From Takakia lepidozioides (taxonomy: Eukaryota > Plantae > Bryophyta): DNA of 64,000 nt. Where the stretch lies: the NCBI GenBank assembly GCA_030704615.1, contig CM060732.1:1736001-1800000 (forward strand). The letters run 5' to 3'. Positions within the stretch are counted from its first letter, which is position 1. Each line of letters opens with the position of its first letter. Position numbers and translations under genes: made by a program. Positions 7,101 through 55,827 of this stretch are shown in pieces. Under the pieces are notes generated by a model that worked only from the letters and a program-made list of their open reading frames with translations, was not told where the DNA came from and made no database searches.

Positions 7101-8110
7101 ATGTGAGGACAGCAACTGCTGGATGACTTCCCGAAGGTCTGGCTTACAGATAATGTGATTATGAAGAATACCCCGTGGACATGTATGCCAAATGTGGGAG
7201 CATTGAGGATGCGGTGGGAGTGTTCAACGTGGATTACAAAGCTTATGACTGGACAATTTGGGGGGGTGGGGACTGGGGTGGGAAACAGTTACGTGGTGCA
7301 AATGCTGAGGTTGAATGCAAGGAAGAAGAGAAGAGGAGGATGAAGACCGAGTTTGATATGCAAAGCCAGCAACTCACAGCTAAAATTTCCCGACTTCAGC
7401 TTGAGGGAGTTGCTAAGGTGAAAGGCATATTGGTGTATGAAGTGTATCGTCAGTTAAGCTGCTTTAAATGCTATACAGTAACTCGGACCTTCACCAATTT
7501 GCTTCTGCAAAAATTGTTATTCCAACTAAAATTGTGCACCAAGTAAGAATACCACTGTTATATTTGTTTGATAGAATATCTGCTGCATGAAATGGCAGAG
7601 GCTGAATTGGATAGAATTCAGGCTCCTTATTTGAGGAGTGGAGAACTGGCCCTTAGCTTGACGGATTTCCAGGGCTACATTCACAATCCGCTAATGGAAT
7701 GGAACACGAACTGATGACAAACAAAATGTAATCTTGAGAGCAGAGTGAGCAGGCAGTCCTGAAAATGAAAGAGCTGATGGAATCGCGGCTGCGACAGCAA
7801 ATCCAAGCCCATGAAGAAATTCTTCAGAACTTGCAGAAAGCATTTATGACTCAGGTATGTACCATATGTTCTGGAGGTGCAAGGAAAGGGTGGAAGGTGG
7901 CTCTGACCTAAGTTGATAGAAAATAGCGGCCTTTCAAAGCTCTGTGCACAACTTTGCAAACCAGAGGAGGGAATTTGATACTCAGTGCAGATTCTTGGGG
8001 GAGCATGCTGTGTGTTTTGCAGTTGGAGGAGCAGAAGAAAGGAGGAAAGCTGCATCTTTCATCACTTGAGGGTCACTTATGCAGACTACGATGCAAGCTT
8101 GATAGTAGGA
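1179..8110 (+). CDS. Putative multi-exon coiled-coil protein gene (partial model, possibly a pseudogene)
   Basis: Short E/K/Q/L-rich open segments, many bounded by AG..GT. Examples: ~1179-1259 (VEKVKCELAEKSQELTKA), ~2020-2216, ~2376-2417 (EMTILHKAEIKRLK), ~2859-2930, ~3401-3535, ~6548-6631, ~7300-7417, ~7740-7854. No family recognised and exon phases not fully reconciled. Confidence 0.4.
5751..6078 (+). repeat. Two copies of a short dispersed repeat ending in a (CATTT)n tail; more copies at ~2949-3008, ~6757-6800 and inverted at ~3568-3625
   Basis: Consensus approximately CCCATAAGCTCT..GAGCTT.C.GCGGACGTTATAAAG.A..ATTTCATTTCATTT, read directly at 5751-5811 and 6019-6078. Resembles the 3' end of a non-LTR retroelement. 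Confidence 0.6.
7138..7230 (+). pseudogene. PLS-class PPR micro-fragment (about one S motif)
   Basis: Reads SGLTDNVIMKNT / [18 protein letters not shown] across a frameshift. DMYAKCGS..DA..VF is the PPR S-motif signature. Confidence 0.7.
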
Positions 8111-8486: not shown

Positions 8487-9245
8487 TGACTAGTCCTACT
8501 AGTGTAGATGTACCTTATTATGGTAGGAATAGTGAGGACGTGAATGACTGGTTGGAGAGAATTCAAATGGAGGTAGATGTGAGGGATCTGAATGAGGACA
8601 AAACCTTCAAAGTGGCAAGGCTAAATCTGAGGGCCAAAGCTGATGAGTGGTACCGCAAATAGAACCCTAGACTAGACAACTGGGAGGACTTCAGAACAGC
8701 CATAGCTGCAAAATTTGGTGTCATTGATCTGGCAGAAATCAGGCTGCGGATGGATGTCATCAAGCACAAAGGGTTCAAACATATTTCGATAGGTTGAACC
8801 GCCTGTTCATGAGGAGTGAGGTGTCTGATTTGGAGCAAAGGCGTAGATTCATAGGAGGTTTGAGACCAGAGATAGCGAGAGTGATGCTGGGCAGGCGCTT
8901 TTCTGACGTAGAGGCAGCACTTGAAACAGCCATTGAAATTGAGAGAGGTCTGGGCAAGTTGGGGGAGATACCTCTAGAGCCCTTGGAAGGAGAGGATTCA
9001 GATGAATCAATCGTGTTTGTTAGTCCTGTAGACAAAATTCGATCAGTTGAACACTACCCTACAGAAGTACTTCGAGAGAGGACCAGTCATAGGAGAGAAC
9101 TCAGGATCTAGGACACCACCTCGTGCTTGCCTTTGTAACACTTGCCATGAAGAGGGTCACATAGCTGCATATTGTCCAAAAAGAAGAACCCAAGCCAAGT
9201 GTGACAAGTGTCACCGGTTTGGGCATTCCATGCAAATGTGTGGTG
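8487..9245 (+). mobile_element. Ty3/gypsy gag pseudogene (capsid plus two CCHC knuckles), truncated
   Basis: EDVNDWLE..ARLNLRAKADEWY..WEDFRTAIAAKFG; RRFIGGLRPEI; CNTCHEEGHIAAYC and CDKCHRFGHSMQMC. Contains stops and frameshifts. Confidence 0.8.
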
Positions 9246-9839
9246 TGTCATGCTCTTTCATAAGCTTGTAGAGGGCGGTTTGAGGAGTGTCTACAGGATG
9301 CTTCTCATGGTCATGCAAGTGAGAGAAGAGAGGAAAAAGAGAGTGTTGGGATGAGGGCATGCTGGGGATAGGCATTGCTTTAGCTTCCCTTCCTCATAGC
9401 TTTCCACCTTCTCAGTAGGTCGAGACCTTTCCGTAGGTGGAGACAAGAGTCAACCCGGTTTTGGGCTGGGGTGTTCTTGCAAGAGCGACATTGTGGAGTT
9501 GTTTTTGGTGTGGGGGAGCTGTTGTTTTCATTCTTGTGTTTAGATCCCTTCCACACCTGCATGCTTGATTGTGCGCCATGCTAGCTTTATTATAGGTGGT
9601 TGACTCGGATTTGATCACCGATCCAATCATAGAGCATGCTGTCGATAGTGAGGCTGGGGTTAGACCATCTTTGTTTCTCTTGTGGTGAGGTTGGAGGTGA
9701 TGACCAGCCAACCATAGAAGTGCCTGCGGTGAATGCAGGTGCAGGTTATCTTATGAACCTAGTATTCCAAACCATAAGCCACATCATGTTCTCTATCCGG
9801 TAACCTTGTGGAAAGGGGGTTAGGGACATGTTCATGACC
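9246..9839 (+). repeat. Candidate LTR of the downstream gypsy element
   Basis: Starts TGTCATG exactly where the upstream gag breaks off and ends CATGAC(C), an imperfect terminal inverted repeat. A gag ORF follows. No canonical PBS and no second copy in the window. Confidence 0.3.
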
Positions 9840-9989: not shown

Positions 9990-10797
9990 CGATTCTGAAT
10001 CAGGAGGGTGCACGCCAACGCTTCCTTGCCATTGTTGTGGGATACAATGGAGATGTATACAGCTACCAAGGGGCCACGAAGATACTCTGGGGCGGTGGGC
10101 ACCATCGAGTTGGATGATTTCATTCAAGAATTTGATAGTTGGCGTGACTTGCAGCAAATGCGCAATCCACAATTGTTTACGCATTTTATGGCATGAAAGG
10201 GGCTGTTTCAACACCTTGAGGGGCCGCCCATGGATGATTACCATGAGTGTAGGCGGGGGCATGATGTTGAGATCGAGGACTGGAGAATGTACTGTCACCC
10301 GACTATGTCTCCATCACTAGAGGCACAAGGGCAGCGGCCACACCGGCAGCTTCCACAAGCAGCAGCAGTGGGACTAGTGGTACAGGGACTAGGACGTCCA
10401 CCCAAGCCATTGCTGCACCAGTACCAGTATCCATGCTAGTCTTCAACCCTGTTGTGGAGTTTTTCGAAGAGTTGAGAATGAACTACCAAGGGGTGAGGAC
10501 AGAGAACTTGAGGAGCTTGCAAGAGTTCCAGAGGAAGCCTACTGAGAGCTTGAGGGAGGTTTTCACTCGTATGAGGCGCAAGCTTGATAAATGTAACCCA
10601 AGGGGTTACGGAAGCTCAGGCAGTCCAATTCCGGTATGGGATATTGGACAAGGAGCTGAGGAGAAGGGTGCGGTATGCAACTCTCCTACAAGTGGCCCAA
10701 CTCACCTTAGCAAATGTGTTTTTGCTGGCAGAGCGGATAGAGCTCAACATGGTGGAAGAATGAGTGGTTATGGTGGGATTTGCTAAGGAGACACCAC
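9990..10797 (+). mobile_element. Ty3/gypsy gag N-terminal/capsid region without zinc knuckles, degenerate
   Basis: ATKGPRRYSG..ELDDFIQEFDSW..KGLFQHLEGPPMDDY; EFFEELRMNYQG..LRSLQEFQRKPTESLREVFTRMRR; LTLANVFLLAERIE. Retrotrans_gag-like pattern. Confidence 0.7.
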
Positions 10798-10853
10798 GGG
10801 GTAGTGGTCCTCCTAGCCAGCCACTACCCCAACGTGCTCAAGGCAACAATCAA

Positions 10854-10988
10854 GCAGTGTGGACATAACCAATCTCCATCAAGAACCCTATCAAGAGGTG
10901 GTGTCAAGCATCCCATGTGCCAACCCCTTGAGCATCGATCACATATCAGGATGGTGGCTGCCCCTTTGGCAGACCCACAGAGCATGCA
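10854..10988 (-). other. PHD finger at the integrase C-terminus
   Basis: CMLCGSAKGAATILICDRCSRGWHMGCLTPPLDRVLDGDWLCPHC is a canonical C4-H-C3 PHD with the conserved W. Confidence 0.92.
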
Positions 10989-11344
10989 CCTCAAACCTGC
11001 AGGTACCACTGCCAAGTTTGGATCAACTCTGCCATCGACATTGGGAAAGTGACATGACGCACAATTACGCACATGGTCCTTCCAAGTCATGCCATCCCAA
11101 CCCTCCAAGATCAGGACTCCTGAGGGCAACACCTCTCGAACCCTCAGAATAACACGCCCTGCAGTGACATCCAGGGTCGTAGGAGCAGTTACTGCAAATA
11201 AACATAGTCACTAGGGCTAAACCTTTGAACCCGAGGATGATATCCTCCACCCCGTATAGTGACATACCTCAACGTATCACGATGCTGTGCAATGGCAAGG
11301 TTATCAAAAGCCATAGGTATGACTTATTTGAATAACTCTGCACG

Positions 11345-12332
11345 CTACTCACATGCGCGTATCCACACGTCCGGATCGTCAAGGTTAAGGACTTGAACAG
11401 TGTCCCTCCGAATGGCTGCAGGCAAATCCGGCTCTCGGCCAAAGAGAAGGAAATATGGCGAGAAGGAGGCATGTGATGCTTGCTTGTTGAACCTGTAGCC
11501 CATAGCTAACCACGGTACCTGAAGATCCTGATCTCCTAGGTGTCCCTTCTGCAAGCCATACTTGCGCAAACCCCTCTTCACCGTCTGAACAACTCTATCT
11601 GCCAAGCCATCGGCCTTAGGATACTCCCGAGAAGTGGTACGGTGGTCTATCAAGGCTTTATCACACAAAGCCTGAAACTCCCCCAAGAACTCTTTCCCTT
11701 GGTCCGTGAGTACCTCTGCTAGAGCACCGAATCGGCTAAGCACACGATCCAAGAATGCATACACAGCCCCCTCATTAACCTTGTCAGACAACGGAACCAA
11801 CTCAATCCATTTGGAGAAGTGTTCCACCATTACCAACACATATCTGTGGTGACACATCGTCAGTGGCAACAGTCCTGCGAAGTCAAGACTTCACCTGTAG
11901 CCCAATCCCATGATCGGTAAATGATGCAACTGGGGTGTATGAGCGTTGAATGAAGCACGCACCCTGTCACACACCATGCACTTAGCCACGAACTGTTGCA
12001 CCTATGTGTGCATACCACGTCACCAATACTACCCCTGCAGTAGACTGTGAGTGCATCGCACTCCAAAATGCCCCAACTCCTCATGGGCATGCCGCACTAA
12101 CCGTGCAAGCTGTGTTGGGTGAGGCATGATCCTTACTCGACCATCCTCCTATACTCGGAGCAGGTGTATCCCATCTCACTTGAACCTCTTGGTTCATTGC
12201 AGGATCCGATCCCTCTCCTTGACAGTCACAGTGGCTGCTGTAGTCCAACATAGCCGAATCCTCATGTATATCTCTAGCACCGCCTGGCTCACCACTAGCC
12301 TCAGGGTCCTCAGACACTCCGTCTACAGTCAT
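11345..12332 (-). pseudogene. Gypsy integrase (HHCC plus core)
   Basis: AHEELGHFG...CMVCDR zinc-binding region; YVLVMVEHFSKW, VLTDQGKEF, YPKADGLADRVVQTVK, SPYFLLFGREP. Confidence 0.88.
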
Positions 12333-12459
12333 CCATGTTGGAGGTCCAATCTAGCCTCCCGCTGCCAAGATATACAAGAATGCAGATGCGTGCCACCCCG
12401 GCACCATCTCCTCATCCGTCTCATCATGCCACCGAGCTCCAGTGTCATCCTGCTGGCTC

Positions 12460-13816
12460 GTGCATGGATTGCGACTCAATCCATCTGCATCCCGATTGAT
12501 TTAAACCGGTCGATGCACCACCTGAAAGTCGTACTCTTGGAGAATGAGTGCCCACCGTGCAAGCTTCCCCGTAAGCTTGTCTGTCTCCATCAACCACTTA
12601 AGTGGCTGGTGATCCTTAACAAGGATGAAGAGATTGTCGTATAGATATCACCTGAAGTGTGCCACGGCCCACACTGCAGCTAAGCACTCTCCCTCATATG
12701 AACTATACTTAACCTCTGCAGCGTTGTTCGAGCGGCTAACATAAGCCACTTTAAACTTTCTCCCCTCATCATCCACCTGTGTGAGCACTGTTCCAAGCCC
12801 TAGCATGCTCCAATCCGTGTGCAGCTGAAAGGGACGCCCCCTGATATGTCGTCTCAAAATGGGCGCCGAGGTCAACCTCGCCTTGAGCTCCTGAAAAACT
12901 CGTTCTTGCTCATCTTCCCACTGCCACTCCTGGTCCACTTGGTCAGCTTGGTTAGAGCCTTTGCAATAGCACTAAATCCCTTGATAAACCGTTTATAATA
13001 GTTTGTCAACCCCATGAAAGCTCGAACTCGGCTCACATCCGTGGGGCGTGGAATTTGTGCAATGGCCTCTACTTTAGTCTGTTGTACCCCAATCCTCCAG
13101 GATATATCATGTGACCCAGATACTCAATCTGGTTGTGGAAAAACTTGCACTTCCCCGGATGCAGCTTCAATCCGTGCGCTCTCAAGTGCTCAAATACCAC
13201 CTGAAGATGTCTCTCATGCTTCTCCACCGTAGCACTGAAGATGATGATGTCATCTATATAGCACCAAGCAAACTCCACCCCTGCTAGAATCATGTCCATG
13301 ACTCTCTGGAACTCTGCTGGAGCGTTCTTAAGCCCAAATGGTAAGAACCGCCACTGATATAGGCAATCATTCTCGTGCTCATTGATCCCCCAGAATGTCG
13401 TCTTCTGCTTGTCTGCTTCCTTGATCGACAACTGGTGATATCCGGATCGTAAATCCAAAGTGCTAAAAACCTTAGCATGCCCAATGGCATCAAAGAGCTC
13501 CTCCGGTGTGGGCATGGCATACTTATCGGACTTGGTCTGACGATTTACAGGCCAGTCCGCATATATGTCTCTCCGTCCAATTGCCATAGACATACTTCTT
13601 GGCTGGCATCACTGTGGTTGAGGCATACTCTCCACCAGAGAGCTCCACCAAACGAGCCTCCCAGAGGTCTTGAGTCCTCATCCGAATAAAAGACCTCTCC
13701 ATGTCACTGTATCTATAGGGTCTCCGAAAGATTGACATGTCAGTGGCCAACTCAATACGAATTTCCTGACCCTTCAGTGCTCCCAAGTCATTCAAACTGA
13801 AGGCAAAGCAATTCAT
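12460..13816 (-). pseudogene. Gypsy reverse transcriptase plus RNase H
   Basis: ORFs 13523-13816, 13069-13593 and 12648-12938 carry RT motifs (KSDKYAMP, FSTLDLRSGYHQ, YIDDIIIFS, KLHPGKC, YLGH). RNase H motifs continue to ARWALILQEYDF. Confidence 0.92.
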
Positions 13817-14249
13817 GTAAGCCCTCAGAAACCACCGTATACGTCGTCTCTCTCCTCCGGTGACAATGGGTCCAATGTCAGGCTCCCAATTGTCCTCCGT
13901 AACTGCAACCTTAAGTCCAGCAGACTTAGAGGTAGGAGACGCGTCCCGTGGTTGCTATGCCGCAACCTCTTGAGTAGTGACCACTGCCTGCTCTGTCAGT
14001 GATAATGCCTTATCCTGCCCCATCATCTCATCCTTGAGGACCTCCTCAACCCGAGAATAATCCCCAACCTCATACATCACCGCCGCCTTGGCTGCCAACT
14101 CCCTCTGAACCTCGAGCACCTCCCACATATGCCATGGATGTCTGCACCCCGTGGTCCTCACCTGCTCGCCCCCACTTGCTGCCTGTACCGTCTCGGTAGG
14201 CAAAGAGACCATCAAAAGAAGTGTACTCCGCACTCTGCGCTGCTCAACC

Positions 14250-15190
14250 ATAGCCAAGCTAATAATCCAAGTCAAGCAATTGAGATCCATTGCTTGCCCC
14301 AACACCTGACGACGTGATGCCTCAGAAAGAGACGACACCGCCATGGTACAAGTGATAAAACCCATCGCCCGCTCACGCTTGTCAGCATTGGGCTCCACTA
14401 GCTGCTGCAACTGAACATCCCACAGGAGGCCAGGTCCACTATCTCGGAAAGCATGCGATCCTGGGAAACTGAGCAGTGTAGGTAGTGCTGCTTGTGGTTG
14501 ACCTACCTTATTGACCACTGCCAAAGGTCATGTCTCACACGCTGAGACTACCTCCATGTGTCCAAAATTCTATCCACTATGAGGTGTGGTGGTCGCTGCA
14601 CCCTATCAAATACACATATGAGCAGTGCGGGTGGCATCAAGTTAGTCCACCATAGCCGTGGACGATGAGCCCGTGACCCCACTGCAGCTGCATCTAGCAA
14701 CACTGCTGACCCAAGCAATGACCGCACTTGATGTACACTGGCCATCACCTTGGCCCGAGAATCGCCCATCAGTGGCACATTCTCTAAGATGTATACTGGA
14801 GATACAGCTTGATGAAGTTATAAGTGGCGCAAAACCCACACCATCTCCCAAAACAGACCCGATCATGAGTCTCGCAATCCATTGTCATGTCCAGCTGATA
14901 AATACCCTTGGCAGGGCCAACCTGCCACTATCAAATGAATGGAGCCAACCCGCTCCAAATCATGCGACCCCAGCAATGAAATGTCTGCTGGCAAGGCCTG
15001 CTGATATCCACGAACTGCAGACACCGACAACAACTCAGAGTACTGCTGCACCAACTGACCAACATGACATAGTGAGACGCGTTGTGCAGTCTCATGCCTC
15101 TCTACATACAAGTATCTCTGAACTTGTACACCTGCTCCTGGCAGCCAATCCGGTGCTAATCCCGCCAAACAAGTCCAGAAAGCAAATGCT
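14250..15190 (-). pseudogene. DNMT3-like C5 DNA cytosine methyltransferase domain embedded in gypsy Pol
   Basis: Motif I ICFLDLFGGISTGL (~15146-15187); GVQVQRYLYVE; motif IV LIVAGWPCQG (PCQ at 14908-14916); motif VI YILENVP (ENV at 14776-14784); motif VIII LDAAAVGSRAHRPRLWWTNL; motifs IX-X ERAMGF..SEASRRQVLGQAMD. Three internal stops and two compensating frameshifts. Confidence 0.9.
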
Positions 15191-15586
15191 TTCATCCGAA
15201 TATTGTCACACAATATGTGTTGTGTCCAATGGTGACAACTGAGGTGGTCCTGGTGCAATCACCGCACTATCCTCCTCTCCTAACGGTCTAAAAGCCTCTA
15301 CCCAGGCTTGTTGCACCCGTCGATCAGCAACCCGCTGCAACTCCTTGCTCGTGCCCCATAGTGGGGTGTGAGCAACCATGGCAGACAACTCCGTCATACC
15401 ATACATGTCATTCTGCTCTCCTGGAGGTGACACATCCTCTGAATGAGCGTTGCCCTCCAGCAACTCTCCAGGCCAACTCACTGCAGCTGTGAATGCTGCT
15501 AGTGTCGGCACCTTGCCTCGCTGGACAACCGCAACTCCTCCTATGAACGTCACAGGGAGCTGCATATGCTGGCCCTCCCCTGACTA

Positions 15587-16000
15587 TCATCCAGACCTAT
15601 AGGAAGCTGACTCCTCCCAAAAATCCAGGGTGAAGCCCATGGGGTACAACATTACCCCACCAACAAGAACATCGTACGAGACCGTGTCTATCACAATGGC
15701 CTTAACTCTCATCACTGAGCCATCTGTAGGATGATCTGGCTGTAGTCCGATAGCCAACTCACACGGTATCATGCCCCAAACTTGCTCTGATCCTCCCAGA
15801 GATGTCTGTATCTGGAATGGGCAAGACTCCATGTCCGTCTTCGTAAGGCCCAAGCCTACAATAGTAGCTCTACCCAGCATCAGTGGTTGAGCTCCCGAGT
15901 CCAACAAAACTCGCAGTGGCCGGTACCTCTTGCCTGCCGGTCCACTCAAACATAAAATGTCATCCTGGTTGTCTAACAAGACAACTCCAGGTATCACCAT
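15587..16000 (-). pseudogene. Retropepsin aspartic protease
   Basis: LRVLLDSGAQPLML active-site motif and C-terminal YDVLVG. Confidence 0.85.
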
Positions 16001-16512
16001 GGCGCGCTCAATGGCTGGCCTAGCTGACAGCTGCAGCTTGCCATGGCGCCGCCGTGACAGTCTTGACCCTCAAATCCGAGGATCCCTCCACCACTACACC
16101 TTCCACTATCTCCGCAGAAGATGAAGTGACCTCCCCACTCTCACAGAGTGTAGCTGCCAGTCTAAACACTACAGCTGGTCGCACCCCCGGTGTCGCAATC
16201 ATGGTAGCCGAGAACAATGGAGCCTGGCACACAGATGTGGCCGCCCCCAACAGCACACTAGCTACCGTAGCCTTGGCAGCACTAGGTTGTGGTGCTGCCC
16301 ATGTAGTTCTCCCCAATGGCATAGTAATCTCCGCCTCGATAATAGTCGGACGAGAACTAGGTGTCATGGATGACGTCGACACTGTCTCCGCCAATGTGAA
16401 TGACTGAGGAAGCCTAGCCTGATGACTTGCCTCCCCTCGTTGTGGATCCAACTCCACCTCTGCATGGCTCAGGATCTCATGCTGCTCCTCGAGTCACGGC
16501 AGCAGCAGACTC

Positions 16513-16650
16513 CACCTGCACTAGTGGTAGTGCTGCCCGCACATAGTGGTAGTGGTAGTGTTGCCCTACACTAGTGGTAGTGGTGGCCTGCACATAGTGA
16601 TAGTGGTAGTGGTAGTGGTACCCTCACTAGTGGTAGTGCTGCCCCGCACA
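16513..16650. repeat. Short internal repeat (CACTAGTGGTAGTG / CACATAGTG units) in the gag-PR linker
   Basis: Several ACTAGTGGTAGTG copies, encoding GAALPLV-like repeats on the - strand. Confidence 0.7.
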
Positions 16651-17166
16651 TAAATCCCATGCCTCCCATGTCTCCTCCCTCAGGAGCAGGAGGGGGACCC
16701 TCATGCCTGGGAGCTGGTACCACCTGAGCTGTGGCTATAGCAGGAAGCCTCTGCTCTAGCTGCTGAAGCCGGTTGGCCATGCCTTGATCAACACCCTGAC
16801 CTCCATGTCCTTGGCCATGTTGAGCTTGCCTTTGGCCTGCACCTCGTGCCTGACCACCTCGTCCCCTCTGAGCTGCTCCACCTCGCCCCGGCTACCACTG
16901 TTCTGTTGGAACTGGCCAGGGCGCAACTCAGGATGCAAGTCATAGCATTGGGCTTCTCCATGTCCATACTTGTCACAATGCCCACACTGCAACTGTGCAG
17001 GCTGTGCCTGAGCTGGCCCTCTGCCTCCCTCTGGGCAATCCTTCTTGACATGGGGTCCTCCACATGTCCAACACACGACACCCGCCGGTTGTTGGCCTGC
17101 AAATGAAGGGAGAGATCCCTGCACCTGAGATCCTCTCTGTCCTTCTATGGGCTTCACCTGAGCCCC

Positions 17167-18247
17167 TGCACTAGTGGTAACTAGTGGCAGCCTAGTGGTG
17201 CACTAGTGGTGGACTAGTGATAGACTAGTGTTTGGTGTGCACATGTGTTGCGTGGTTTTGGACAGCGATGTAGTTATGTAGCGATATGTATGCGCACGAT
17301 AGCTGTCAAATTATTTTACCACTAGTGTGAAACTAGCTAGGAAATAGTTGGTTTTGATATATTGACATTTGGGATTGACCCAAGTATCAATCCAGGGGCC
17401 AATGTATGTTTGGGCACCTGGCGTGGTTATCTTCACGGCAGATCGCGGTGGGCTCATCTTTCTCGAGTTGAGCCTCACCGCGTCTAGCTATGGCGTTGTA
17501 GTGTGGATTCCCCATAGCGTGGGGTGCACTTGGCTCGACTTGTATTTGAGTGATGATTTATACATGCATCAATTGTGTGAGACATGTGAACTTATATTCT
17601 TCTTGTTTATCATTGTGATGGACTAGTGGCTGCACTAGTGGTGACTAGTGGCAGCCTATGGTGCACTAGTGGTGGACTAGTGATAGACTAGTGTTTGGTG
17701 TGCACATATGTTGTGTGGTTTTGGACAGCGATGTAGTTGTGTAGCGATATGTATGCGCACGACAGCTGTCAAGTTATTTTACCAATAGTGTGAAACTAGC
17801 TAGAAAATAGTTGGTTTTGATATATTGACATTTGGGATTGACCCAAGTGTCAATCCAGGGGCAATGTATGTTTGGGCACCTGGCGTGGTTAGCTTCACGG
17901 CAGATCGCGGTGGGCTCATCTTTCTCGAGTTGAGCCTCGCCGCGTCTAGCTATGGCGCCGTAGTGTGGATTCCCCATGGCGTGGGGTGCACTTGGCTCGA
18001 CTATTTGAGTGATGATTTATACATGCATCAATTGTGTGAGACATGTGAACTTATATTCTTCATGTTTATAATTGTGATGGACTAGTAGCAGCCTAGTGGT
18101 GGACTAGTGGCTGCACTAGTGGTGACTAGTGGTTGCCTAGTGGCAGCCTAGTGGTGGACTAGTGACAGACTAGTGTTTGGTGTGCACATGTGTTGTGTGG
18201 TTTTGGACAGTGATGTAGTTGTGTAGCGATATGTATGCGCACGACAG
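17167..18247. repeat. Tandem repeat of ~2.3 units of ~465-480 bp, each headed by ACTAGTGG micro-repeats
   Basis: Near-identical units start at ~17167, ~17631 and ~18111. Duplicate ORFs 17369-17626 and 17825-18085 confirm the repeat. Confidence 0.92.
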
Positions 18248-18299: not shown

Positions 18300-18720
18300 T
18301 GTCACAATAAAGAGATGGGAACTCACGAGTTCGGATTCCTTCTATGCAATGCATGTGTAGTATCAAAGTTACATGAGAGGGGTTGACGTGGCGCAAGACC
18401 AGTTGAGGGGTGCCTATAGCATGCAGTTGAAAACCCATAAATGGTGGCACAAAGTGTTTTCTTTCTTGTTGGATACTACAATAGTGAATGCGTACTTGCT
18501 GCCTTCTGCATACCTGAAGGGGATGGGCAAGTGTGCCCTCAACCATATGGAATTCAATTTGGCAATGGCCCACTATTTGACAGCCGGTACTTGGACATCC
18601 TTGGGTGTGGCTGGGGCAAATGCGGCGGGGTGTGGGGATTGGCACCAATGCTTGCGTTCCACACTTCGTCGACTGTGTGTTCGATGCAAAAAGCGGACAC
18701 CTTCTTCTTCGACCTATTTC
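18300..18720 (+). mobile_element. piggyBac/PGBD-like transposase C-terminal fragment
   Basis: YMRGVDVAQDQLRGAYSMQLKTHKWWHKVFSFLLDTTIVNAY matches the DDE_Tnp_1_7 C-terminal pattern (YN..MGGVD..DQ..Y..KWW..F..LD....NA). It is followed by H..RRLCVRCKKRT, the start of a Cys-rich domain. Confidence 0.8.
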
Positions 18721-18779
18721 AGCCTATTTTGCCCTCTCATCAGACTCGGGCCTGATATGCATACTGAATTGTCAAGGAC

Positions 18780-19040
18780 AAAGCATCGTGTTCCATGACA
18801 CCACATCTCGTTCAGCCATAGTGTTGAAAACTCCCTTCGCATCCTTAATGCACCCACATTTGGCATACATGTCCACCAGGGTAGTGTTCACAATGACATC
18901 TGGTACAATTCCTTGACAATGTCATCATGGACCTCTTTCCCCTTTTCCAGGGCTCCCAGGCTTGCACACGCATTGCAAACACAAATGAACGTGATGTGGT
19001 TGGGCTTCACCCTTTCGCGCATCATTTGCTCACCACATCA
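18780..19040 (-). pseudogene. PLS-class PPR fragment (L and S motifs)
   Basis: Manual translation: [37 protein letters not shown] / [44 protein letters not shown]. Confidence 0.88.
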
Positions 19041-19089
19041 AGGTGCCCTAGGGAGATTGCCCAAGAACATCAATAGCATGAGCAGCCTG

Positions 19090-20330
19090 AACTAGAGCAA
19101 CACTTTGAAGCTGCTACTGATCAGGATAGGTCTTCATTGGAACCTCAGCGGCAGATTGATTCCACCAATGAAGTCTTTACGTCAAATACTAGCCAACGAC
19201 CTATGCAACCTACTCGTCGTTCTACCAGAGCATCAAGAGGAAACATTCCGAATAAGTACAATGATTTTGAGCTCTACTTACCAGATGACGTGGAACTGTA
19301 TGTTGTGGAAATTAGTGACCAAGTGACTGATTCTATCACTTTCTCTGAGGCATTCAATGATCTGGGTTGGAATGCTGCAATGCGGGAAGAATTTGAGTCT
19401 TTGCTGAAGAACAGGACTTGGGAACTGACTAAGTTACCAGCGGGTAGACGTCCACTGTCGGCCAGATGGATTTATAGAGCTAAGCCCATCAATGACCTCA
19501 ACAGTCCAACCAGGACTCGTCTCAAAGCACGACTTGTGGCTAGAGGCATAGAGCAACAACACGACATTGATTACAAAGAAACTTTTGCTCCAGTTGTTCG
19601 TTGGTCAACTTTGAGGGCTATCATAGCGATGGCAGTTGCTGCTGGGTGGCCAATTTCACACATGGACGTTGTTACTGCTTTTCTTAATGGAAACCTTGAA
19701 GAAGTAATCTACATGCAGCAACCACTGGGCTTTGAAGAAAAAAGACTTGAGCATTTGGTATGCAAGTTAAAGAAATCTTTGTATGGGCTAAAGCAATCTC
19801 CACATGCATGGTATCACGAGATTGACTCATTTCTGAGAACTGAAGGCTGGATCCGCAATGACGCAGACCCTAACCTATATTATCTGGAGAAGGATCAGCT
19901 GTTGTTTTCCTGCTGCTGTACGTCGATGATCTCTTGATTACAGGAAATGATGCCTCAAAAATTTCTCAAGTAAAGTAGCAACTTCAAAATAAATATGAGA
20001 TGAAGGATCTCGGTGAGATCACTAAGTACCTTGGCGTTGAGTTTGCTTGCACAGATCAAGGGATGCTAATGCATCAACATACATATGCTCAACAAATTCT
20101 GAAGGACCAAGGCATGGAAGATTGCAGAATGGAGCACACACCACTTCCCGATGGATTTGTAACTCAATTTGAAATGGACACTGCTCCGGTTGATAGTACT
20201 GAGTATTGCCAATTGGTGGGAAAATTGTTGTTCTTAATTAACACTCGCCCAGACCATATGTTGTCGGATTGGTGGCTCGGTTTATGTCAAAACCGCAACA
20301 ACAACATATGGAAGCAGTATAGGGTACAAC
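19090..20330 (+). mobile_element. Ty1/copia RT block (RVT_2), lying upstream of gag
   Basis: WNAAMREEFESLLKNRTWEL, RLKARLVARG, ETFAPV, HMDVVTAFLNG, LKKSLYGLKQSP, YVDD (frameshifted), MKDLGE..YLG, Y.QLVGKLLFL..TRPD. Confidence 0.92.
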
Positions 20331-20429
20331 TACAGTTCTGACCATGTCGCCATGGACCTCTTTGCCATTTTCCAGATTATTTGATTACAGGTCTCCAAAG
20401 CCTTCCTACCACGTCCCTGCTATGGATAC

Positions 20430-23424
20430 CTTGAACGAGATGAAGTCTGGGACGAATTAAACTTTACTGGTGAAAACGCTGACAATGATTTTGCTGAGGA
20501 TGATGTAGGTGATGTAGCTGTCAACGAAGGTGGTGACGTCAATGCTCCTGTGCAACCTCGATATACTCCTCAGCAGATCCGACGTTTTAAAGTTAAAGCT
20601 CGTTCTATTCTGACTGCTACAGTCAAGGACAAGTTTTTGCCTACAATTCGTCAATATTCTAACGATCATGTTGGATGCTGGAATCACTTCAAACAACGCT
20701 TTGGAGGTGATTTGATTCAACGTCAGCTTCTTTTGGAGCAGCAGTTACAAGCGGTAAAAATGACAGAAAGCACAACCATCGAGGATTACCTCAAGGAAGT
20801 TGATGACTCTCTTCTCAACTGGCGGCCATCAACGCTGATGTTGACAACGTTCGGCTCATACACATTGTTCTTCGTGGGCTCCCATTGAGTTGGGGTCCAT
20901 TTATCTCCAGCTTTGGCTCTGATCTGTCTCAGCAACCTGCACCGACTTATAGCAATCTGGTGGAACGTCTCCAAGCCGAAGAATACTGGAGGAAAGGCAA
21001 ACAAGAAGAAGTTGCTGAACATGCTATGATGGCCTCTCGCTTTCGGGCCCCAGCAGGTGGAAGAGCTCCCGGGTCCATCTACTCCAACTCACCGTGGTTT
21101 CTCACGACCTAGTCCTAACCGTGGACGTCATGTAGCTGGGGCATGCAACTACTGTGCTAAGCATGGACACTGGGAAGCTGAGTGCGAACTGAAAAAGCTT
21201 GATGATCAGATCTCACAGCTATGGCTCCGAGCTTCCAATCTCCGCAGAGTGAAACCACAAGCTAATTTAGCTGAAGATATGATGACTATGAAGAAGAGGT
21301 TGGTGACTTCTCTGAAGAAATTTCAGCTAACTTTACAGAGTTAGGACTTGATCAGCGAGACTGGTACATGGACTCCGGTGCAAGTAACCATATTACCGGT
21401 GATAAAGCAACATTGTCCGAATTTGTGCCTAGCTCGTCTAATCCATCTGTAACCACAACTGGCGGCTCCAAGCTTCCCATTTTGGGCAAGGGCACTGCAA
21501 ATGTTGATAATAAAGCTGTACGCAATGTTCTTTACGTCCCGGGTGCACATAAGAATCTCATGTCTGTTGGCAAGCTAACAGATGCTGGGCATCTTATTCT
21601 TTTTTATTCCAAAGCTTGTTATGTGTTTGATAAAGATAATCCTCAGCTTGTTGCTCTCCAAGCTACTCGAAATCCACGTAACAACTTGTACCGTCTTTCT
21701 GCTGCATTGCCTGGCCAACACGTGCATCGATATTCACGAGGTATCACTTCTCTTCCTTCATTCAATCATTGTCGTCCACATACATCTCGGTATTTGTTAC
21801 ACGAGGTTGTTTCAGAACCACCCCAAGTTCTTGAAATTACACAAACCAATACCGATGTGGTCGATCTTTGGCACAAGCGGCTTAGTCATCTTAATTTCCA
21901 ATCGGCTTATCATATGACGACTAAGGAGCTAGTCACAGGGATTCCCAAACTTCCATTGGCCAAACGAACATGCACCTCTTGCATACTTGCTAAGCAGCAT
22001 CACGAAAGGATTCCAAAATGGGCGCAGACACAACCAACCCGACCATTTCAGCTGGTACATTCGGACTTATGTGGACCAGTAAAAACGACTGCTTCTGCGT
22101 TTTAACATTTATTGACGATTACTCTCGCTTTACTTGGGTGTATTTTCTCGCTAATAAAAGTGAAGCTTTTGCTCGTTTTAAGGAGTTCAAGGCCATGATT
22201 GAAAGTCAATTCCAGTTGAGAATTTCCTGTCTAAGGACAAATCGTGGTGGCGAGTACATGTCTCATGACTTTCTTCAATACTGCCACTACCATGGAATTC
22301 GTCGCCAATTGACTGCTCCCAACACCCCACATCAAAATGGTGTTGTTGAGCGGAAGAATCGGACTTTGCTCGAAGCTGCTCGTGCCATCTTCATAGACTC
22401 CAAATTCCCCAGTTCTCTTTGGATGGAAGCTGTTCGTGCTGCTGCCTACGTCCTCAACCGTTGCTGTACTCGGGCTCTACATCTCAAAACCCTTTTTCAA
22501 GCACTCAACGGTAATAAACCCAACCTTTCACATCTCCTTGTTCTCGGATGTACTGCCTTTGTCCATATTCCATCTCAATTTAGGTCCAAACTTCAGGCTA
22601 AGGCAGTTCAGGCAGTTCTTGTTGGTTATGATACTCAAACAAAAAGCTACCGGTGCTACGATCCACTCCGTCGTCGAATTCTCATTAGCCCGAATGTCAC
22701 TTTTGTTGAAGAGGCGCTTGGGGATTTCCAGCATGTGCCTTCTCCCACATTCTTCGATGAATTGTTGTCTGTTCTTGGTCCGGATCAGGCTCACCCTCGT
22801 GAGCCAGAAAAAAAACAATGGACTACGGTCTTTTCTTCCAGTGCAGCCCCGATCTCACTCTCGTCGGATGCTGATTATTTGGGTTGCTTAGAGACTCGGC
22901 GCTCTACTGGTGGTTATGTGTTCACAATGGCTTCTGGGGCAATTTCATGGTCAAGCAAAAGGCAAGCCACCGTTTCAGACAGCACTACACAAGCCGAATA
23001 TAAAGCTTTGTCTGAAGCCACAAAGGAAGTAGTCTGTCTTAGAAGGCTATTACAGGAATTAAAGGCCTTATATACCACTGCAGTCTCACTCAAATGCAAA
23101 AAGGTACAAATCCAGTCGGATCTCTCCAAGGCCTCCATTCCTACCCTGCAGGATCTTCACTTGAATTGCGACAATCAAGGTTCTATTAAATTGGCACTCA
23201 ATCCCGTTTTTCACGTACGTACCAAGCACATAGAAGCAAAACATCACTTCGTAAGAGAACGAATACTAGAAGGCGAGGTGAAACTCAAACATGTTGCCAG
23301 CGACGAACAACATGCAGACATTTTTACTAAACCTGTAGGCAGACAACTGTTTGAGAAGCATCGTCATTTTATTGGTGTTCGATCCTTATCTCATCTCTCT
23401 GCTGTTTCTGATGTCTGGCTGTAG
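20430..23424 (+). mobile_element. Ty1/copia gag-PR-INT fused directly to RNase H, with RT absent from its normal position
   Basis: UBN2-type gag with CNYCAKHGHWEAEC; WYMDSGASNHIT protease; LWHKRLSH..CTSC; FIDDYSR, LRTNRGGEY, QNGVVERKNRTL; then SDADYLG..RRSTGG, CDNQ, RTKHIE, ADIFTK. Confidence 0.92.
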
Positions 23425-29789: not shown

Positions 29790-32700
29790 CTATCCGCCTT
29801 TCTTGGAATGCTCGCTTTTCATCTTGACTTCCTTTGTGAACATCCGTGGGGCAATGGCCATGGACATCAATTCTTGGAACAGAAGTTTGCACGCGTATGG
29901 AATGTGCACCTGCCACACCACCACCACTCTCATGAGTCTACACCTGACTTATTTATCCACCATAGCTTGGCACCCTTTGTCATTTTCCAGTATGAACCCT
30001 AGATTGCTAGGGGAAGTGGCTCTTAATTACGCTGGCATCGGCTGAAGTATTCTCACTCAATTAGGTACTAGTATCTTAACCAGTAACTAATCTAACGACA
30101 ACAGCACACATCCCCTTCCAGCTACTGACAGTATGGGCCCAGTTAAATTACAAGTGACAGTATGTGAGGTACTTGTACCAGCTACTGAGAAACATACGAC
30201 ACAGCACAGCAGAAACACGCACCTGAACTATATCTGTCTTGTTTTTACAGCCTCGGCATTCATATGTATTCTTCTTCAAATTGGCAATGGCTATTAGTCC
30301 ACAATGTTCACATACGTGAACACGGTAAGCATCACTTTGGTCAAACAGACGCTCCTTCAAAAAGTGGGCGGCCCCATGCGCAATCATGCAATCTCGTTCC
30401 ATCTCACCAAACCGCAGGCCTCCATCTCGAGACCGCCCTTCAGCAGGCTGGCGGGTCAATATTTGGACAGGACCACGCCCTCTTGAATGGATTTTGTCAT
30501 CCACCATATGTTTTAGCCTTTGATAATAGGTTGGTCCCAAGAAGATCATGGCACTCAACTTTCGGCCAGTATGCCCGTTGTACATCACCTCAAAGCCCCT
30601 CATCTGATAACCACATTTGTGCAGCGCCTTGCTTATATTATCCACCTTCAATTCCCCAATCACAAGTGAGTGAGTTCCCACTCTGATAAAGAGTAGAGAA
30701 AAGTTAACATTTGTGGCAATTTGCTCCTAAGGAACAACACACTAGAGCTTACTTGAGAACATGGATAACTCAAAGACATGAAATATGTGATCTTGTGATT
30801 TCAGTTTCAAGAGTTTAAAACTTGTCACCAAACTGCCTACCCCGGAATTTGTCTTTTTAGTACCCAGTGTCTCAGGCACAGAAGGAACACGCTGGGGCCC
30901 ATGCAAATGGTCATACAGAAGATGTCTGCACAGGAAACCCTTATCCAACTAAGCTTTCAAAATGGGGGGAAAAAAGGACAAAACTTGTGACCTACCGTCA
31001 CATCTGTAAATGGTGTTGCATCACCTTCCTTGCCCATGTGGGCAGCAACTTTGCCCATGATGCACTCGATAAGCTGACCGATGGTCATGCGTGAGGGAAT
31101 GGCATGAGGATTCACAATAATGTCAGGTGTTATGCCCTCTTGCGTCCAAGGCATATCTTCCTGCGTATAAGTCATGCCCACCGTTCCCTTCTGCCCATGT
31201 CGACTGCTAAACTTGTCTCCTATTTGAGGTATTCGGATTGACCGAACCCTGATCTTCACAAACCGCAGTCCATCAGCGTTGGTTGTCAACAGAACCTGCA
31301 ATCCAATGGCACCCAACTCTCAGCTCTCTTCCCTCCCCAAGTATGATACAACACCATGTTTAGACCACCCTGCCTCTTCCCTCTCCTTCACAAACACAAC
31401 TGTGCAAACCAGCATGCAACGCATATTTGATCCCCATGGTCAATGGGCAACAGAATAATGTGTCCACTACATGCAGACTGGTTGGGTGAAAACCTGATCA
31501 ATCATGCCACTTTCACTGTGGCGCAAGCATGTGCTCTGGTCACGCTTGGTGTAGCGCTGTGCTTGACTGGCATTGTCGTCCTGGGGCAGAGGTGTGGTCT
31601 TGCCAATTATCACATCCTCGCCTGACACACGAGTACCCTGCACCCTCCTCAAACATGTCAGTGCCAATATACAGGAGTTCACAGTCATGGCATGTTTGAG
31701 CACATTTTATTTGCAAGCATGTAATGATGTAATAATCATAGAAGAACTCCCACATGGAATGACTCTCCCTAATTACCAGCATGGCACTTTGCCTACAAGA
31801 AATAGATGCATCCTTCACTAACTTCTCACATGTGACACCATGATAGCATGGGGAAACCAGTTGGAAATACAGAGCTAGTTCACAGGAGGCCAAGCTTGAA
31901 TTCCAAAATAGTATTGTGAAGCTTACTGGGGGGGCAAGTCCATCATCATCCAACTTGTCATAAGACCCATGCCGCATGCCCTGCCACCCATCCAACCGTA
32001 GTCGGCCAGTAACGTTGAAAAAGCATTTTACACGAGTTCAACAACAATCTAGGAGCATCTAACCACCAAAAGAATAACAGAAAGTTTTCCTCACTGACAA
32101 GCCTACACTAGTTGTACAATTAGTAGAACCTGACGGGATGTCCAAAAGTCAAACAACCCACCCTCAAACAGCAATAAAACTTTGGCATCCTTGCTACAGT
32201 ACATAATCTCCACTACAATGAAGATAATGCAATGTAGCTCCACAGGCAACTCACTGTAGTGTTCTCCCTGTTTGGTCGCTCAAACTCCTCTTTGATCAAA
32301 GTGCCTTGCTTTTTCTCCTCATCCCTGATTCAAACACACAATTCCATACAGAGTTACATAAAAACTGTGAGTTGAGAGGCTAGTAAATCAGCACACGCAT
32401 ACAAGAACATCTTTAGAACTTTTCGCCTGTGTGTATACACCCAAGACATCGACTCCAACTCGTCAACATTCTGTACAATCAGATAGCCATCTGAAGAAGG
32501 TCCATCAAAGTCACAAAACGAAATGTGGAGAGAGTTTTTAGTGTTCCTTAAAATCCACTTCAATATCAAAAAGCCTTTCGCTTCCTTGTGGCAATGTAAG
32601 TGCCCTAAACCTGCCCCTGATTTGTAGAGGGAGAAAAGGAAACACTAATCTTTTGTATGGTCATAGGCTGGCAGTACGAGATAATTGCTTCCAAAATACC

Positions 32701-35700
32701 TGTAGGATCGATAAAAGATGGAGCGGAAGAAGCCACGATCAATAGAAGACTGGTTCATGATGACAGAATCCTCCTGATTGTAACCCGAGTAGCAGGCAAT
32801 GGCGACTACAGCATTCTGCCACCCCATACCCTCACTAAATTAATATGGTCTAGGAAAAGCAGGTAATAAGCATGGCCTTTCGATCCAATCTTAGATGGCA
32901 CTTTGTGACGAATATAAGAGAATATCTACAGCAACTAAGAATGTCACAACACAGAATGAACAGTATGTAGGTAGCACTCAAACACAGCTCAAGAAACGTG
33001 GAAACACAATGCAATTGAAACAAGGCTTACAATGCCGGCAGGGAGTTGCCGAAAATGCAGGTGCTCCATGGCTCGTGTTGTCACAAGTGGCTTTTGAGGG
33101 TAATACAGCACGTAGGCCAGAGTGTCCTGCTCCCACATACACCAAGTACCTCTTACAGTTCCCTTATACTATTTGAAGCTATCAATGACCTTCCCACTTC
33201 AAATAACTATGGAGAAGAGCATAAACAGTTTGTTTATGCCATTAATAGTACAAGTAAAGTTGGCCACAATAAAACTACAGACACACAGTCCAATTTCAAC
33301 ACAGCACTCGTATACTGACCATGCGGAGTTGATAATTTGTGACATAGATGCCCATTGCCTGCTTGCCCATAGCAGATTGATAGGTGTTACGTGGCGACTG
33401 CAAAACACAACACTTCGCCATTACACATTTGGCTCTCCCAACAAACTAATGCTCCCACAAGTATGGAGGTCAGATGCACATGCAAAATGAGCAAGAAGTC
33501 CTCAACTAACTTGAAAATGCCAAAAAATTACACTTAAAAGTGTGAAGCGAAGCGAAATTACAGTTAACAATCACACATCAAATATTAGGGCATAGGATGA
33601 TACCTGATTATGATCAGGAAAAGGAATGATTGAGCCACAGACCCCAAGAATCATGGAGGGATGAATTTCACAATGTGTGTACGTGTCTGAGTAGGCCTCC
33701 TCAGGATTGTTTCTTGCATTTACCAAATCCTGCCATCATTGACCAAAATTAGCCCTCTTACACAAACTAGTGTGCCCTCATGTTGGCGTTCTCACCTGTA
33801 GGCTGGAACCATTACTAACTAAAGATCCGAAGAGGTCTTTAGTATCATCCCATTCCTCTCTTTCCTCCAGTCACTCCGTCCACTTCTTCATGTCATTATT
33901 AACAGTTTGAATGTCCTATTACTGTTTCGTAGTTTATTCATTTGGAGCAGCTATTTCCTCAGAATGTCTATGAGAGTTGGCAATGAATGTCTTTTAAAAC
34001 ATCTCCCCAATTGTAGTTACGAATAAAACACATGTCACGTCCACCATACCGCAATTGTCATGGAGATCATGGTTGTCTCCTCTTCCTCTGTGTCCACATA
34101 CTCAATGAATCCTTTCGACACCAAGTCGTACCACCCACTTTCGGGAGCCTCCTGCAAACGGCAGATGCCGTTCAGTACATTTAGTAACATCAGCTCCCAT
34201 CCACAATTTAGTGCCACCTATCCCAATAAAACACATTATATCAAAGTTCATTGAGAAAGACAGACTCCGCACCTTCTGCTGCAGAGCTCGCACATCTTTT
34301 TTCTTGATAAGCAGCCGTTGCTTCTCTACAATGAAGAGAGGGCGACTGCAGCGGCCATAGTCTGTATAAAGCCGCAACTCCTTGAGTCGGATGTCTCGCA
34401 CTACTCCCACTTCTGTGTTGACATCAACCTGCCTCAGAGACATGTCAGCACCAATCTTCAGTGATCCCTAAGTTCTCTCCATCAAGCTCGTTCTGAGATG
34501 TGGAAGTATTTAGCAGCATCATTGAATTGAAGTTCGCTGCAACACCCTCCATCATCCCCTACGGCCAGTCTCATCATTCCTGGCAGTGGAACAGCCTACA
34601 AGGGACCATACCTGTCGACGAAGCTGTCGAAGAGTACGCACGAGCAGCTCAGGGTCACGATGAATGCCAACCCAGAGGCCGTTCACAAAAATCTTTGTTG
34701 AATTGGGAATAACAGCTGGAGATATTTCCTGCAATGTAACTCCTGGTCAACTTACAATTGTGCCAGTACACAGATATCCAAATATGCATTTCACAACTTG
34801 AGAGTAAGGAATCTGACCTCAAAATTTTCAGTACTCCATTCTTCCAAAAACTCCAGGATGGGGTTAGCAGCTGAGCCAACAGTGATGTAAGCCATAAGGG
34901 CCAAATTCTTTACCAGCCCACAGGCCTGCCAGAGCACAAACACAATTACACTTCATTTGGAAAGGCGACCATATGTGGAGCAATGTGAGAGCTTAGTAAA
35001 CTCTGAAGCCACATACGTAAATAAGCATAAATCGCAGCACAATTTCCAATTATGAGGAACAATGCACACCTGCCCCTCTGGAGTTTCAGCTGGGCACATC
35101 ATGCCCCAGTGAGAATTGTGCAGTTGCCGGGGCTTGGCCAGCTTTCCTGGAAAACGAACCCCAGTATTTGGGAGTGAGTGAAGTCTCTGTACCTTAAGCC
35201 TCCGAGAAAGAACGAAATAAATGAACTGGAGGTACATTGGACGTAATTAAAAGACAATGCCAACCGTAGTGTCCTCACCTTCACGCCCAATTGGAGAGTT
35301 GAGTCTGCGCAAATGTGAAAGCGTTGAAGCGTAAGTTAAGCGATTCAGCACCTACATCAGTACCATTCCAGCATGTGATGGAAGGATTGTCCCAAAATCC
35401 AACTGTCAAAATCATGCCTACATAAACCGCCAATGTCATAGTTACCAACTTCAGCAGGGATCCTTGAGCATCCAGAAGCACTTGGAAGGCACGGACTGTA
35501 GCATTCATTAGAGAAACAAACCCTAGATAGCTGATTCTTACTGAAGCCTGCACAGGAGACAATCTATTAAGAATGTCCCGAAGGCAACCACAGATGGTAG
35601 TCCTGGAATGATGTCCGACTAGCACCAGCCACCAACATGGAGAACAAGTTAGCGAAATCGCCCAAAGCAGCAGTCACACGTGTTAACGCTATGTTCAGAA

Positions 35701-40582: not shown

Positions 40583-40839
40583 CTTGTTCTCCTACGCACC
40601 AGCAATATATTCTCTTCCCCCTCCTTTCCCTTCAGGTAAGCTGCTCAGCGTTGTATCAGCAAGGCTGGGCGCAGAGGGGCCGGGACACGGAAGCTCACTC
40701 GGCAACAAGCCCTTCCCTGTCTCGCCGCTGGGGTTTTATTCTGAGATGCACATGCATGCATGTATCCATCCGTCGCTCATGTGGGTATACATAGATACCT
40801 ATGAATGTCTCCCTAATAGAGAACAGCATGGGAGTTGAA

Positions 40840-46600: not shown

Positions 46601-47423
46601 CCTTGTACTCTCTTCTGAAAAGTACATGTCCTTTTGGACATGCATGTATCTTCACGTAGTTGAGGCCGAGCTTCCAATCATTTTGTTGGCCATGTGACAG
46701 TTTTTTGGCATTTCATTTGGTTGTGGAAGCAAGTTCAGCCAAAGCAAAGAGAACAACTCGTCCACAAAATGGTCTGACACACCGTGGGTTGTGCACAGGT
46801 TCATCAACAACATGCTGGCAGCAAGCTTTGTGGATTTGCATCCCTCGTACAGTGGCACACATGCTTCTTCTAGTGTCATGTGTGCAGAATTCTCATTTCC
46901 ATCTCCACCTCCTTCCACGCCTTCCCCACGTGAATGCCTTCATTTCCTACGTCATCACCATCCCCAGTTATCGCAGCGCCGTCCCCTCTTCAGCATCGTC
47001 CATGATGTGGAATGCTTCCTGCAACATTCGAGTAATCTCCACCCCTCCGTCCATGCCTGGTTCCTGTCCTGCGCCCATGACATAGTCCTCGTCCGGCCTG
47101 TCTGTATGGCTCCCTCGGGGGTGTGCATTGTCCAATTGTGCCCACTCCTCATTGTCTTCGTCTGCAGGTCCATCTCCAATCCACACCCGAAATGCTTCAT
47201 GTCTTTTGTGGTGAAGGAGATGTGTGCGCACACTGTCCTCAGATCTACTTGTAGTGCCCAAACAACGTTCACATGGGCATGGCATCCTTGAAAGCCCAAG
47301 GGCTCGGGCACGTGCCACTTCTCTTTCCCACAACCTGTCATCCCGGTTGTTCTGTCTACAGGGGTGATTAATTGGAAGTCCTCCGCATGGGCGAGGGGAA
47401 CTCATTTCTGTTGGGGAACTCAA
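43700..47423 (-). mobile_element. CACTA (En/Spm) TnpD-type transposase gene, degenerate, with introns
   Basis: MPCPCERC N-terminal domain; KIHACP..CPKCG..VLRHFPLIPRL, PRNVRLAVSTDGVNPY, STWPV, YNLPPW, IDVYLQPLIEEL, IHDFPAYG (Transposase_21); DPMHCEKN; FFDVMTHLLVHL..RWMYPMER..RPEGSMAEGY (DUF4218); YVGVIKEILKLDY..LFRCSWV (DUF4216). Confidence 0.92.
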
Positions 47424-47974
47424 GACAGACAGGAGAGAGAAGTGGGTCTATGGGCATATCAGAATTACAAGAGCACACCAAAAGACTGGAGATTTGTTCC
47501 ATCTATGCACCTTCGGTACAGATGGTGAAGAGAGGCAAAGGCCGTGTGGGGAAGTACATACATCAACTCCCCCAACTGCACGAACTATTGGGCCCCTTGT
47601 TCTCTTCCATGGTATGCTCTGCCCCAATCCAAACACCCTGAATTCTCCATTGTTGCTACTGCAGCCTGCTTTCATTCACATCAACAGCATGTCAAGGGCG
47701 TCACAAGAACTTCCTATAGGAAATGTGACAGTTTATGGGAGAGGAGATATGTCAATCATATCTTCATTTACCAGGAAAGATGATAACCCCATCCCCACCT
47801 CACAGCCAACAATCTCCACGACGCCAGACTTTCATATGTCAGCATGCACCTGTTTTGACCTTCTGGCAGGCTGGCCCACACCTTCGAAGTAACACAAACG
47901 GATATGACCTGGTCAAATTTCCCCTTTTCAGCCTCAACAACACTCCCTGTGCCTAGCTGTAGAAGAGGGCAAGC

Positions 47975-50990: not shown

Positions 50991-51010
50991 AGAAAATGAA
51001 GTTAGGCAGA

Positions 51011-55820: not shown

Positions 55821-55827
55821 TGCGTGA

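Follow-up and report, generated by a model that had tools for sequence, protein, structure and literature searches.

How a cytosine methyltransferase came to lie inside a moss retrotransposon, and with which of the element's proteins it would be made, is the question raised by the window, a 64,000-nucleotide stretch of Takakia lepidozioides DNA. The window contains a decayed, internally inverted Gypsy element, encoding Gag, protease (PR) and a DNMT3-like methyltransferase (DNMT), then reverse transcriptase (RT), RNase H (RH), integrase (IN) and a PHD finger. The order PR-RT-RNase H-integrase, together with an RT of Gypsy type, places it in the Ty3/Gypsy group. Its parts are as follows, in window positions:

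10047..10849, plus strand: decayed N-terminal part of Gag (tblastn with Marchantia protein P0007, residues 4-249, 68-73% identity)
10850..17166, minus strand: inverted block with the remaining coding region (junction in sister copies; GagN-CCHC-PR collinear in relatives)
10850..12200, minus strand: integrase and C-terminal PHD finger (PF00665 E 1.8e-11, PF00628 E 1.7e-10)
12351..13954, minus strand: start of ORF2, RT and RNase H, frameshifted in the window (PF00078 E 7.7e-32, PF17919 E 6e-27)
13949..13957, minus strand: conserved amber stop and CAA-CCA (UAG-CAR-YYA context), between ORF1 and ORF2
13958..14527, minus strand: end of ORF1, with methyltransferase motifs IX-X and a tail (motif X lies 114 codons before the stop)
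14533..15135, minus strand: methyltransferase motifs II-VIII with PCQ, ENV and RxR (PF00145 E 1.9e-8; 65% identity to P0007)
15143..15202, minus strand: methyltransferase motif I (DLFGGISTG), in the protease frame, with a frame break just 3'
15590..16030, minus strand: aspartic protease (LLDSGA; weak PF13650/PF13975 matches, above cut-off in relative P0086)
16900..17166, minus strand: C-terminal part of Gag with zinc knuckles (tblastn with P0007 residues 272-354, 49%; zf-CCHC in relative L017)
17167..18246, plus strand: 3' terminal repeats B-A-B-A-B, period about 463, ending in GACA (laid out as the B-A-B end of L027)

The Gag N-terminus lies on the plus strand as a result of an inversion. In sister copies, position 10849 is joined to 17166 on opposite strands (all four sequencing runs aligned), and the inversion is therefore internal to the window copy. 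Sequences of the family are abundant in the host species: 86,107 contigs were aligned in run X1, a figure that is not a copy number. Only 3' repeats are kept in the window, where the 5' A repeat was not found, and the repeats of the relatives are split, with the layout A-coding-B-A-B (as in L027) or A-coding-B, so that two complete matching LTRs do not flank these elements. All three loci with both ends (L016, L027 and L031) showed 4-bp target duplications, and the element starts with TGTC in two of them and with a variant in L016. The ends are thus of integrase type (TG...CA) with a short target-site duplication, and the element carries split direct repeats on an integrase element, like KnitGypsy-Dnmt3.

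The coding sequence of a C5 cytosine methyltransferase lies, broken into three pieces, on the minus strand at 13958-15202, with DLFGG at 15175, GWPCQ at 14922, ENVP at 14784, HRPRLWW at 14667 and ERAMGF/GQAMD at about 14380-14290. The middle piece has two in-frame stops within the PCQ-ENV stretch and a frame break at its end; with X at the two stops it matched PF00145 with E 1.9e-8 (34.5 bits, cut-off 22), and its unbroken sub-pieces alone fell below the PF00145 cut-off (one at E 0.028, two without a match). Motifs I-X stand in canonical, non-permuted order with the catalytic C, E and R, as in DNMT3-type enzymes. Among solved structures (PDB), the family profile matched DNMT3A best (E 6e-24), then DNMT3B/C, with DRM2 at 8e-11 and HaeIII, HhaI and DNMT2 at about 1e-6. 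The top Foldseek matches were all DNMT3; the AlphaFold model used there had a mean pLDDT of 58 with a poor C-terminal half, and served the fold search only. Most of what an earlier, sequence-only reading had claimed for this domain is borne out: the motifs, their order and the PCQ, ENV and RxR residues, the likeness to DNMT3A, the sharing of the protease frame by motif I and of the pre-RT frame by motifs IX-X, and the death of this copy. It had further taken two compensating frameshifts as a sign of a polyprotein. This argument fails, because comparison with relative L017, whose domain is uninterrupted, resolves the breaks into two separate deletions, one of 5 bases and one of 10, and compensation is a one-in-three coincidence.

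A search with an 89-aa piece of the domain returned 64 relatives, the named ones from Marchantia, Calypogeia, Riccia and Sphagnum, in agreement with the land-plant Gypsy lineage that had been proposed. Marchantia polymorpha encodes several uninterrupted Gag-PR-DNMT proteins of 1278-1281 aa, and the covered parts of 36 metagenome loci, some short or partly deleted, are collinear as Gag-PR-DNMT-RT-RH-IN-PHD. The domain occurs in elements of liverworts, mosses, chlorophytes and Klebsormidium, and 432 clusters (50% identity) scored E < 1e-30. Of the 119 domains of the tree set, chosen by a single match covering at least 240 profile positions, 119 have the catalytic Cys, the Glu of motif VI and the second Arg of motif VIII. 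The rate comparison that the earlier reading had suggested gave dN of 0.24-0.30 vs dS of 1.6-2.9 between families (five pairs, dS being near saturation), and 0.49 vs 3.2 for a sixth pair, with L037. RT is under tighter constraint than the methyltransferase (RT dN 0.14-0.19 between families). Dead copies within one family showed methyltransferase dN/dS near 0.55-0.85, as expected from decay after insertion. These data indicate that the methyltransferase domain is under purifying selection, and that selection has kept a non-permuted C5 methyltransferase, DNMT3-like, as an integral part of this land-plant Gypsy family; the enzyme is predicted to be catalytically active.

Its place relative to Pol depends on one codon. 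The sequence-only reading had noted a TAG at 13955 followed by 46 open codons, and considered the enzyme built into Pol within a single PR-DNMT-RT ORF. The TAG is there, with 143 open codons in the frame beyond it. A stop occupies this junction, in frame with RT, in all 28 loci covering it (22 TAG, 6 TAA), and the next codon is CAA in 27 of them; these 28 of the 36 metagenome loci include near-duplicates and reduce to 19 distinct junctions from only two families. Eight loci do not reach the junction; in one of them, L023, a TAG occurs earlier and is not followed by CAA, which is tentatively read as decay. TAG-CAA-YYN is common to four divergent families with dissimilar linkers, the stop being followed by CAACCA in the window, CAACCA or CAACTA in L017, L028 and L029, CAACCC in the peat-metagenome family and CAATCA in L037. 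UAG-CAR-YYA is the readthrough consensus of plant viruses of the tobacco mosaic virus type (PMC3542737). The CAR-YYA part is exact in three of the four families, and the largest family sampled, with CAA-CCC, is one base off; the junction thus presents a conserved in-frame UAG in a type I (TMV-like) context, with CAA-CCC in the fourth family. CARYYA followed only 6 of 1188 stop triplets, counted in any frame of five element copies, and three of the six are these junctions. In four runs containing the window's own family, no variant reached the 1% threshold at 13948-13960, with 17 variant rows elsewhere in the 141 bases. L037, a distant relative, has an uninterrupted Gag-PR-DNMT frame, then TAG CAA TCA, then 1047 open codons of RT-RH-IN-PHD in one frame, that is, two uninterrupted ORFs in the same frame with only this stop between them. 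Proteins of the family end about 100-115 residues past motif X. The TAG at 13955-13957 is therefore a conserved family feature, not decay, and since a conserved stop precedes RT, the methyltransferase ends ORF1 (Gag-PR-DNMT) and does not lie in Pol. Of the earlier claim, the integral nature of the domain holds, as opposed to a later insertion, and its place in a single PR-DNMT-RT ORF does not. The search for intact copies had the same mixed outcome: uninterrupted Gag-PR-DNMT proteins exist, and the order PR-DNMT-RT in a single ORF was found outside the stop-bearing clade, for instance in a Klebsormidium protein. Folding of the 100 nt from the stop in four families gave z from -1.45 to -2.70 and no clearly common structure, and a contig guessed to be RNA spans the stop in one piece, which is too weak to serve as evidence. 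Judged by position and context, readthrough of the conserved UAG is likely.

The best 120 of 159 long proteins from the profile search fall into three layouts: (i) Gag-PR-DNMT, ending after the methyltransferase; (ii) a single ORF for DNMT-RT-RH-IN, preceded by protease wherever the sequence extends that far (seven proteins, including Klebsormidium KFL_009030040); (iii) RT-RH-DNMT-IN-PHD, the largest group, with named members from Chlamydomonas eustigma, Chromochloris and Cymbomonas. Most relatives among these 120 carry the methyltransferase in the same ORF as RT, and capsid-level expression is therefore not needed in general. Proteins P0088-P0170, with the domain between RNase H and integrase, often lack a PF00145 annotation and some have a G-patch; about half show Glu for Pro before the catalytic Cys and Cys for Phe in motif I. 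In the methyltransferase tree (FastTree, midpoint root; the trees contain no host DNMT3), the first two layouts form one clade (0.994), with the stop-bearing group as a subclade (0.996); P0095, labelled as ending after the methyltransferase, falls among the third layout. In a quick RT-RNase H tree with one long outgroup, the stop-bearing group (98) and the third layout (99) each hold together, and the single-ORF PR-DNMT-RT elements do not form one clade, nor is the Klebsormidium protein sister to the stop-bearing clade. A single origin of all three layouts is plausible. We tentatively consider, at somewhat less than even chances, an old green-plant Gypsy lineage with an integrase-PHD that already carried a DNMT3-like enzyme before land plants and moved it within the polyprotein, with RNase H-DNMT-integrase in chlorophyte members, PR-DNMT-RT in Klebsormidium and a place before a programmed amber readthrough in the bryophyte-containing clade, where a capsid-level methyltransferase would methylate cDNA before integration. 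L037 (1-9285), an uninterrupted DNMT-Gypsy of eukaryotic type, was assembled as a circular contig, with a terminal overlap of 127 bases, in the genome assembly of a cyanobacterium, where it is probably contamination. In IMG/VR, none of 47 candidate stretches from a first scan was confirmed as a relative, and a second scan gave 30 loci whose matches, short and weak, were confined to the methyltransferase region; these were set aside.

The best explanation of the bryophyte arrangement, to which we give an even chance as a whole, is a Gypsy element with Gag-PR-DNMT as ORF1 and with ORF2 expressed by programmed UAG readthrough, whose capsid-level methyltransferase methylates the element's own cDNA in the particle. 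Most ribosomes would stop at the UAG and release Gag-PR-DNMT, and a few percent would read on into RT and integrase. Because the domain ends the capsid-protease gene before a leaky-looking stop, the enzyme is probably produced in large amounts and enclosed in the particle; there the protease may free it, in many copies, beside the cDNA as the most accessible substrate. The likely gain would be a new copy that arrives with a CG-type mark like that of host DNA. In yeast, Dnmt3 domains from DIRS elements carry out de novo CG methylation, and cDNA methylation was proposed for DIRS-Dnmt3 by de Mendoza et al. (PMC5890265). CpG observed/expected ratios of 0.27-0.78 in the elements vs 0.52 in the host flank showed no clear separation and count against the model. 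Methylation of element cDNA by the packaged enzyme is, on balance, slightly favoured.

An integrase-PHD complex might instead direct the enzyme, away from particle cDNA, to chromatin at the insertion site, at the integrated copy or at other elements. A PHD finger is attached to integrase in all three architectures, the methyltransferase directly precedes integrase in the largest group of the best 120 of 159, and nucleosomal DNA is a substrate of DNMT3 enzymes, to go by PDB titles. However, the stop puts the enzyme in the Gag frame, apart from integrase, in the stop-bearing clade, and the Klebsormidium methylome is not unusual, which makes this account rather unlikely.

The same anatomy could also hold with the stop as an ordinary end of ORF1, ORF2 then being translated by reinitiation or from an RNA that is spliced or starts internally. 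A precedent is Candida Tca2, whose in-frame stop between gag and pol is not read through by local context (PMC2194720); the largest family sampled has an ATG three codons past the stop; and the Marchantia gene models P0004, P0006 and P0020, which are predictions, splice round the stop. Against this stand the strict in-frame position and the CAA-YY kept in four families. Moreover, a pre-RT stretch that is conserved with the single-ORF relatives lies upstream of the first ORF2 Met in three of the four families (Met at +47 in the window, +48 in L017, +117 in L037), which argues against reinitiation. Expression without readthrough is accordingly judged improbable.

It is a little less probable still that the element retains the domain for something other than DNA methylation, such as binding or methylating element RNA or a structural function in the particle. 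The Klebsormidium domain gave no DNA methylation in yeast, a result that its authors call inconclusive (PMC5890265), the domain is fused to Gag, and the C-terminal half of the structure model has low confidence; yet the catalytic residues of DNA C5 enzymes are all invariant in the 119 domains, and the profile favours DNMT3A/B far above DNMT2. That a piece of host DNMT3 was captured once and has since been carried neutrally would suit the ratios among dead copies, but is very hard to reconcile with the spread of the domain from liverworts to chlorophytes, with its 432 clusters and with strong selection between families.

The earlier doubt whether such a lineage had been described can be lifted, since the kind is published: KnitGypsy-Dnmt3 of Klebsormidium nitens is an algal relative (de Mendoza et al. 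2018, PMC5890265). Like it, the bryophyte elements combine Gypsy domains and DIRS-like repeats with an intronless, non-permuted Dnmt3-like domain under purifying selection. Klebsormidium KFL_009030040 (P0107), which is taken to belong to it, shows the order PR-DNMT-RT-RH-IN and groups with the window in the methyltransferase tree (clade support 0.994). The host there is an alga and here a moss. The methyltransferase there shares the ORF of RT and RNase H, whereas a conserved amber stop separates them in the bryophyte elements, which would make one polyprotein only if it is read through. SymbioDIRS-Dnmt3 of Symbiodinium is likewise a retroelement-borne Dnmt3 with split direct repeats, and its de novo CG methylation has been demonstrated, but it is a tyrosine-recombinase element of a dinoflagellate (PMC5890265). 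The EpiLTRs/DAM-LTRs are also Gypsy-like with methyltransferase and chromatin-reader domains, but theirs are an adenine methylase, a DNMT4-related domain and a chromodomain, and their authors call them distinct from streptophyte Gypsy-DNMT3 (bioRxiv 10.64898/2026.05.21.726589). Readthrough of an in-frame stop between two ORFs is known from MuLV (gag-pol), soybean SIRE1 (pol-env) and tobacco mosaic virus (PMC2194720, PMC3542737), the last with the UAG-CAR-YYA context of the moss junction (PMC3542737). In MuLV and SIRE1 the stop lies between gag and pol or pol and env, whereas here it follows protease and an added enzyme.

In the open-access literature we found no report of a DNMT3-carrying Gypsy in bryophytes or chlorophytes, nor of the conserved stop, although the main supplement of PMC5890265 may list further hosts. 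The REXdb paper does not mention a methyltransferase or PHD, and two later papers, in their accessible text, say 'streptophytes' without naming bryophyte elements. What appears new is the conserved stop, the A-coding-B-A-B repeats with 4-bp target duplications, and the larger RNase H-DNMT-integrase group with chlorophyte members. The reason that retrotransposons encode cytosine methyltransferases has been an open question since 2018, and the difficulty of working with the known hosts is part of the cause. Marchantia polymorpha is a genetic model with methylation mutants, and its uninterrupted Gag-PR-DNMT proteins make the question testable there. With a conserved stop, the enzyme is predicted to reach an unusual dose in each particle; the stop also accounts for the Marchantia gene models that finish after the methyltransferase or skip the stop by splicing. 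Anyone counting PF00145 domains in bryophyte genomes should be aware that transposon copies are among them.

The rest of the window holds one host gene among remains of other elements. A multi-exon gene for RPB2, the second subunit of RNA polymerase II, occupies 30151-40591 (minus strand); one exon has 95% identity to Sphagnum, 88% to Physcomitrium/Ceratodon and 84-86% to liverworts, which identifies the host as a moss. Directly upstream of the DNMT-Gypsy element, a gag-like ORF with two zinc knuckles (8500-9260, plus strand) was considered as part of it and rejected; it matched none of the 36 related loci and therefore likely belongs to another element. A decayed chromodomain Gypsy at 55593-60232 (plus strand; gag, RT, RNase H, integrase, SH3, chromo) served as the RT-tree outgroup. 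Copia fragments at 19077-23424 (plus strand) are permuted, with RT first and then gag and integrase, and parts of RT and RNase H are apparently deleted or rearranged (both by eye). Remains of a CACTA-type transposase (Transposase_21, DUF4218, Transpos_assoc) lie at 44510-47447 (minus strand). The stretch 48260-52164 contains two inverted-repeat pairs (48260/52151 and 48755/51473) and, at 50974-52164 (plus strand), a LINE-like C-terminal ORF recognized by eye, without a Pfam match. A transposase-like ORF fragment was seen by eye at 18361-18798, a PPR-like fragment within 18361-18990 is repeated inverted at 7153-7228, and the stretch 18780-19000 is very high-copy in the sequencing runs.
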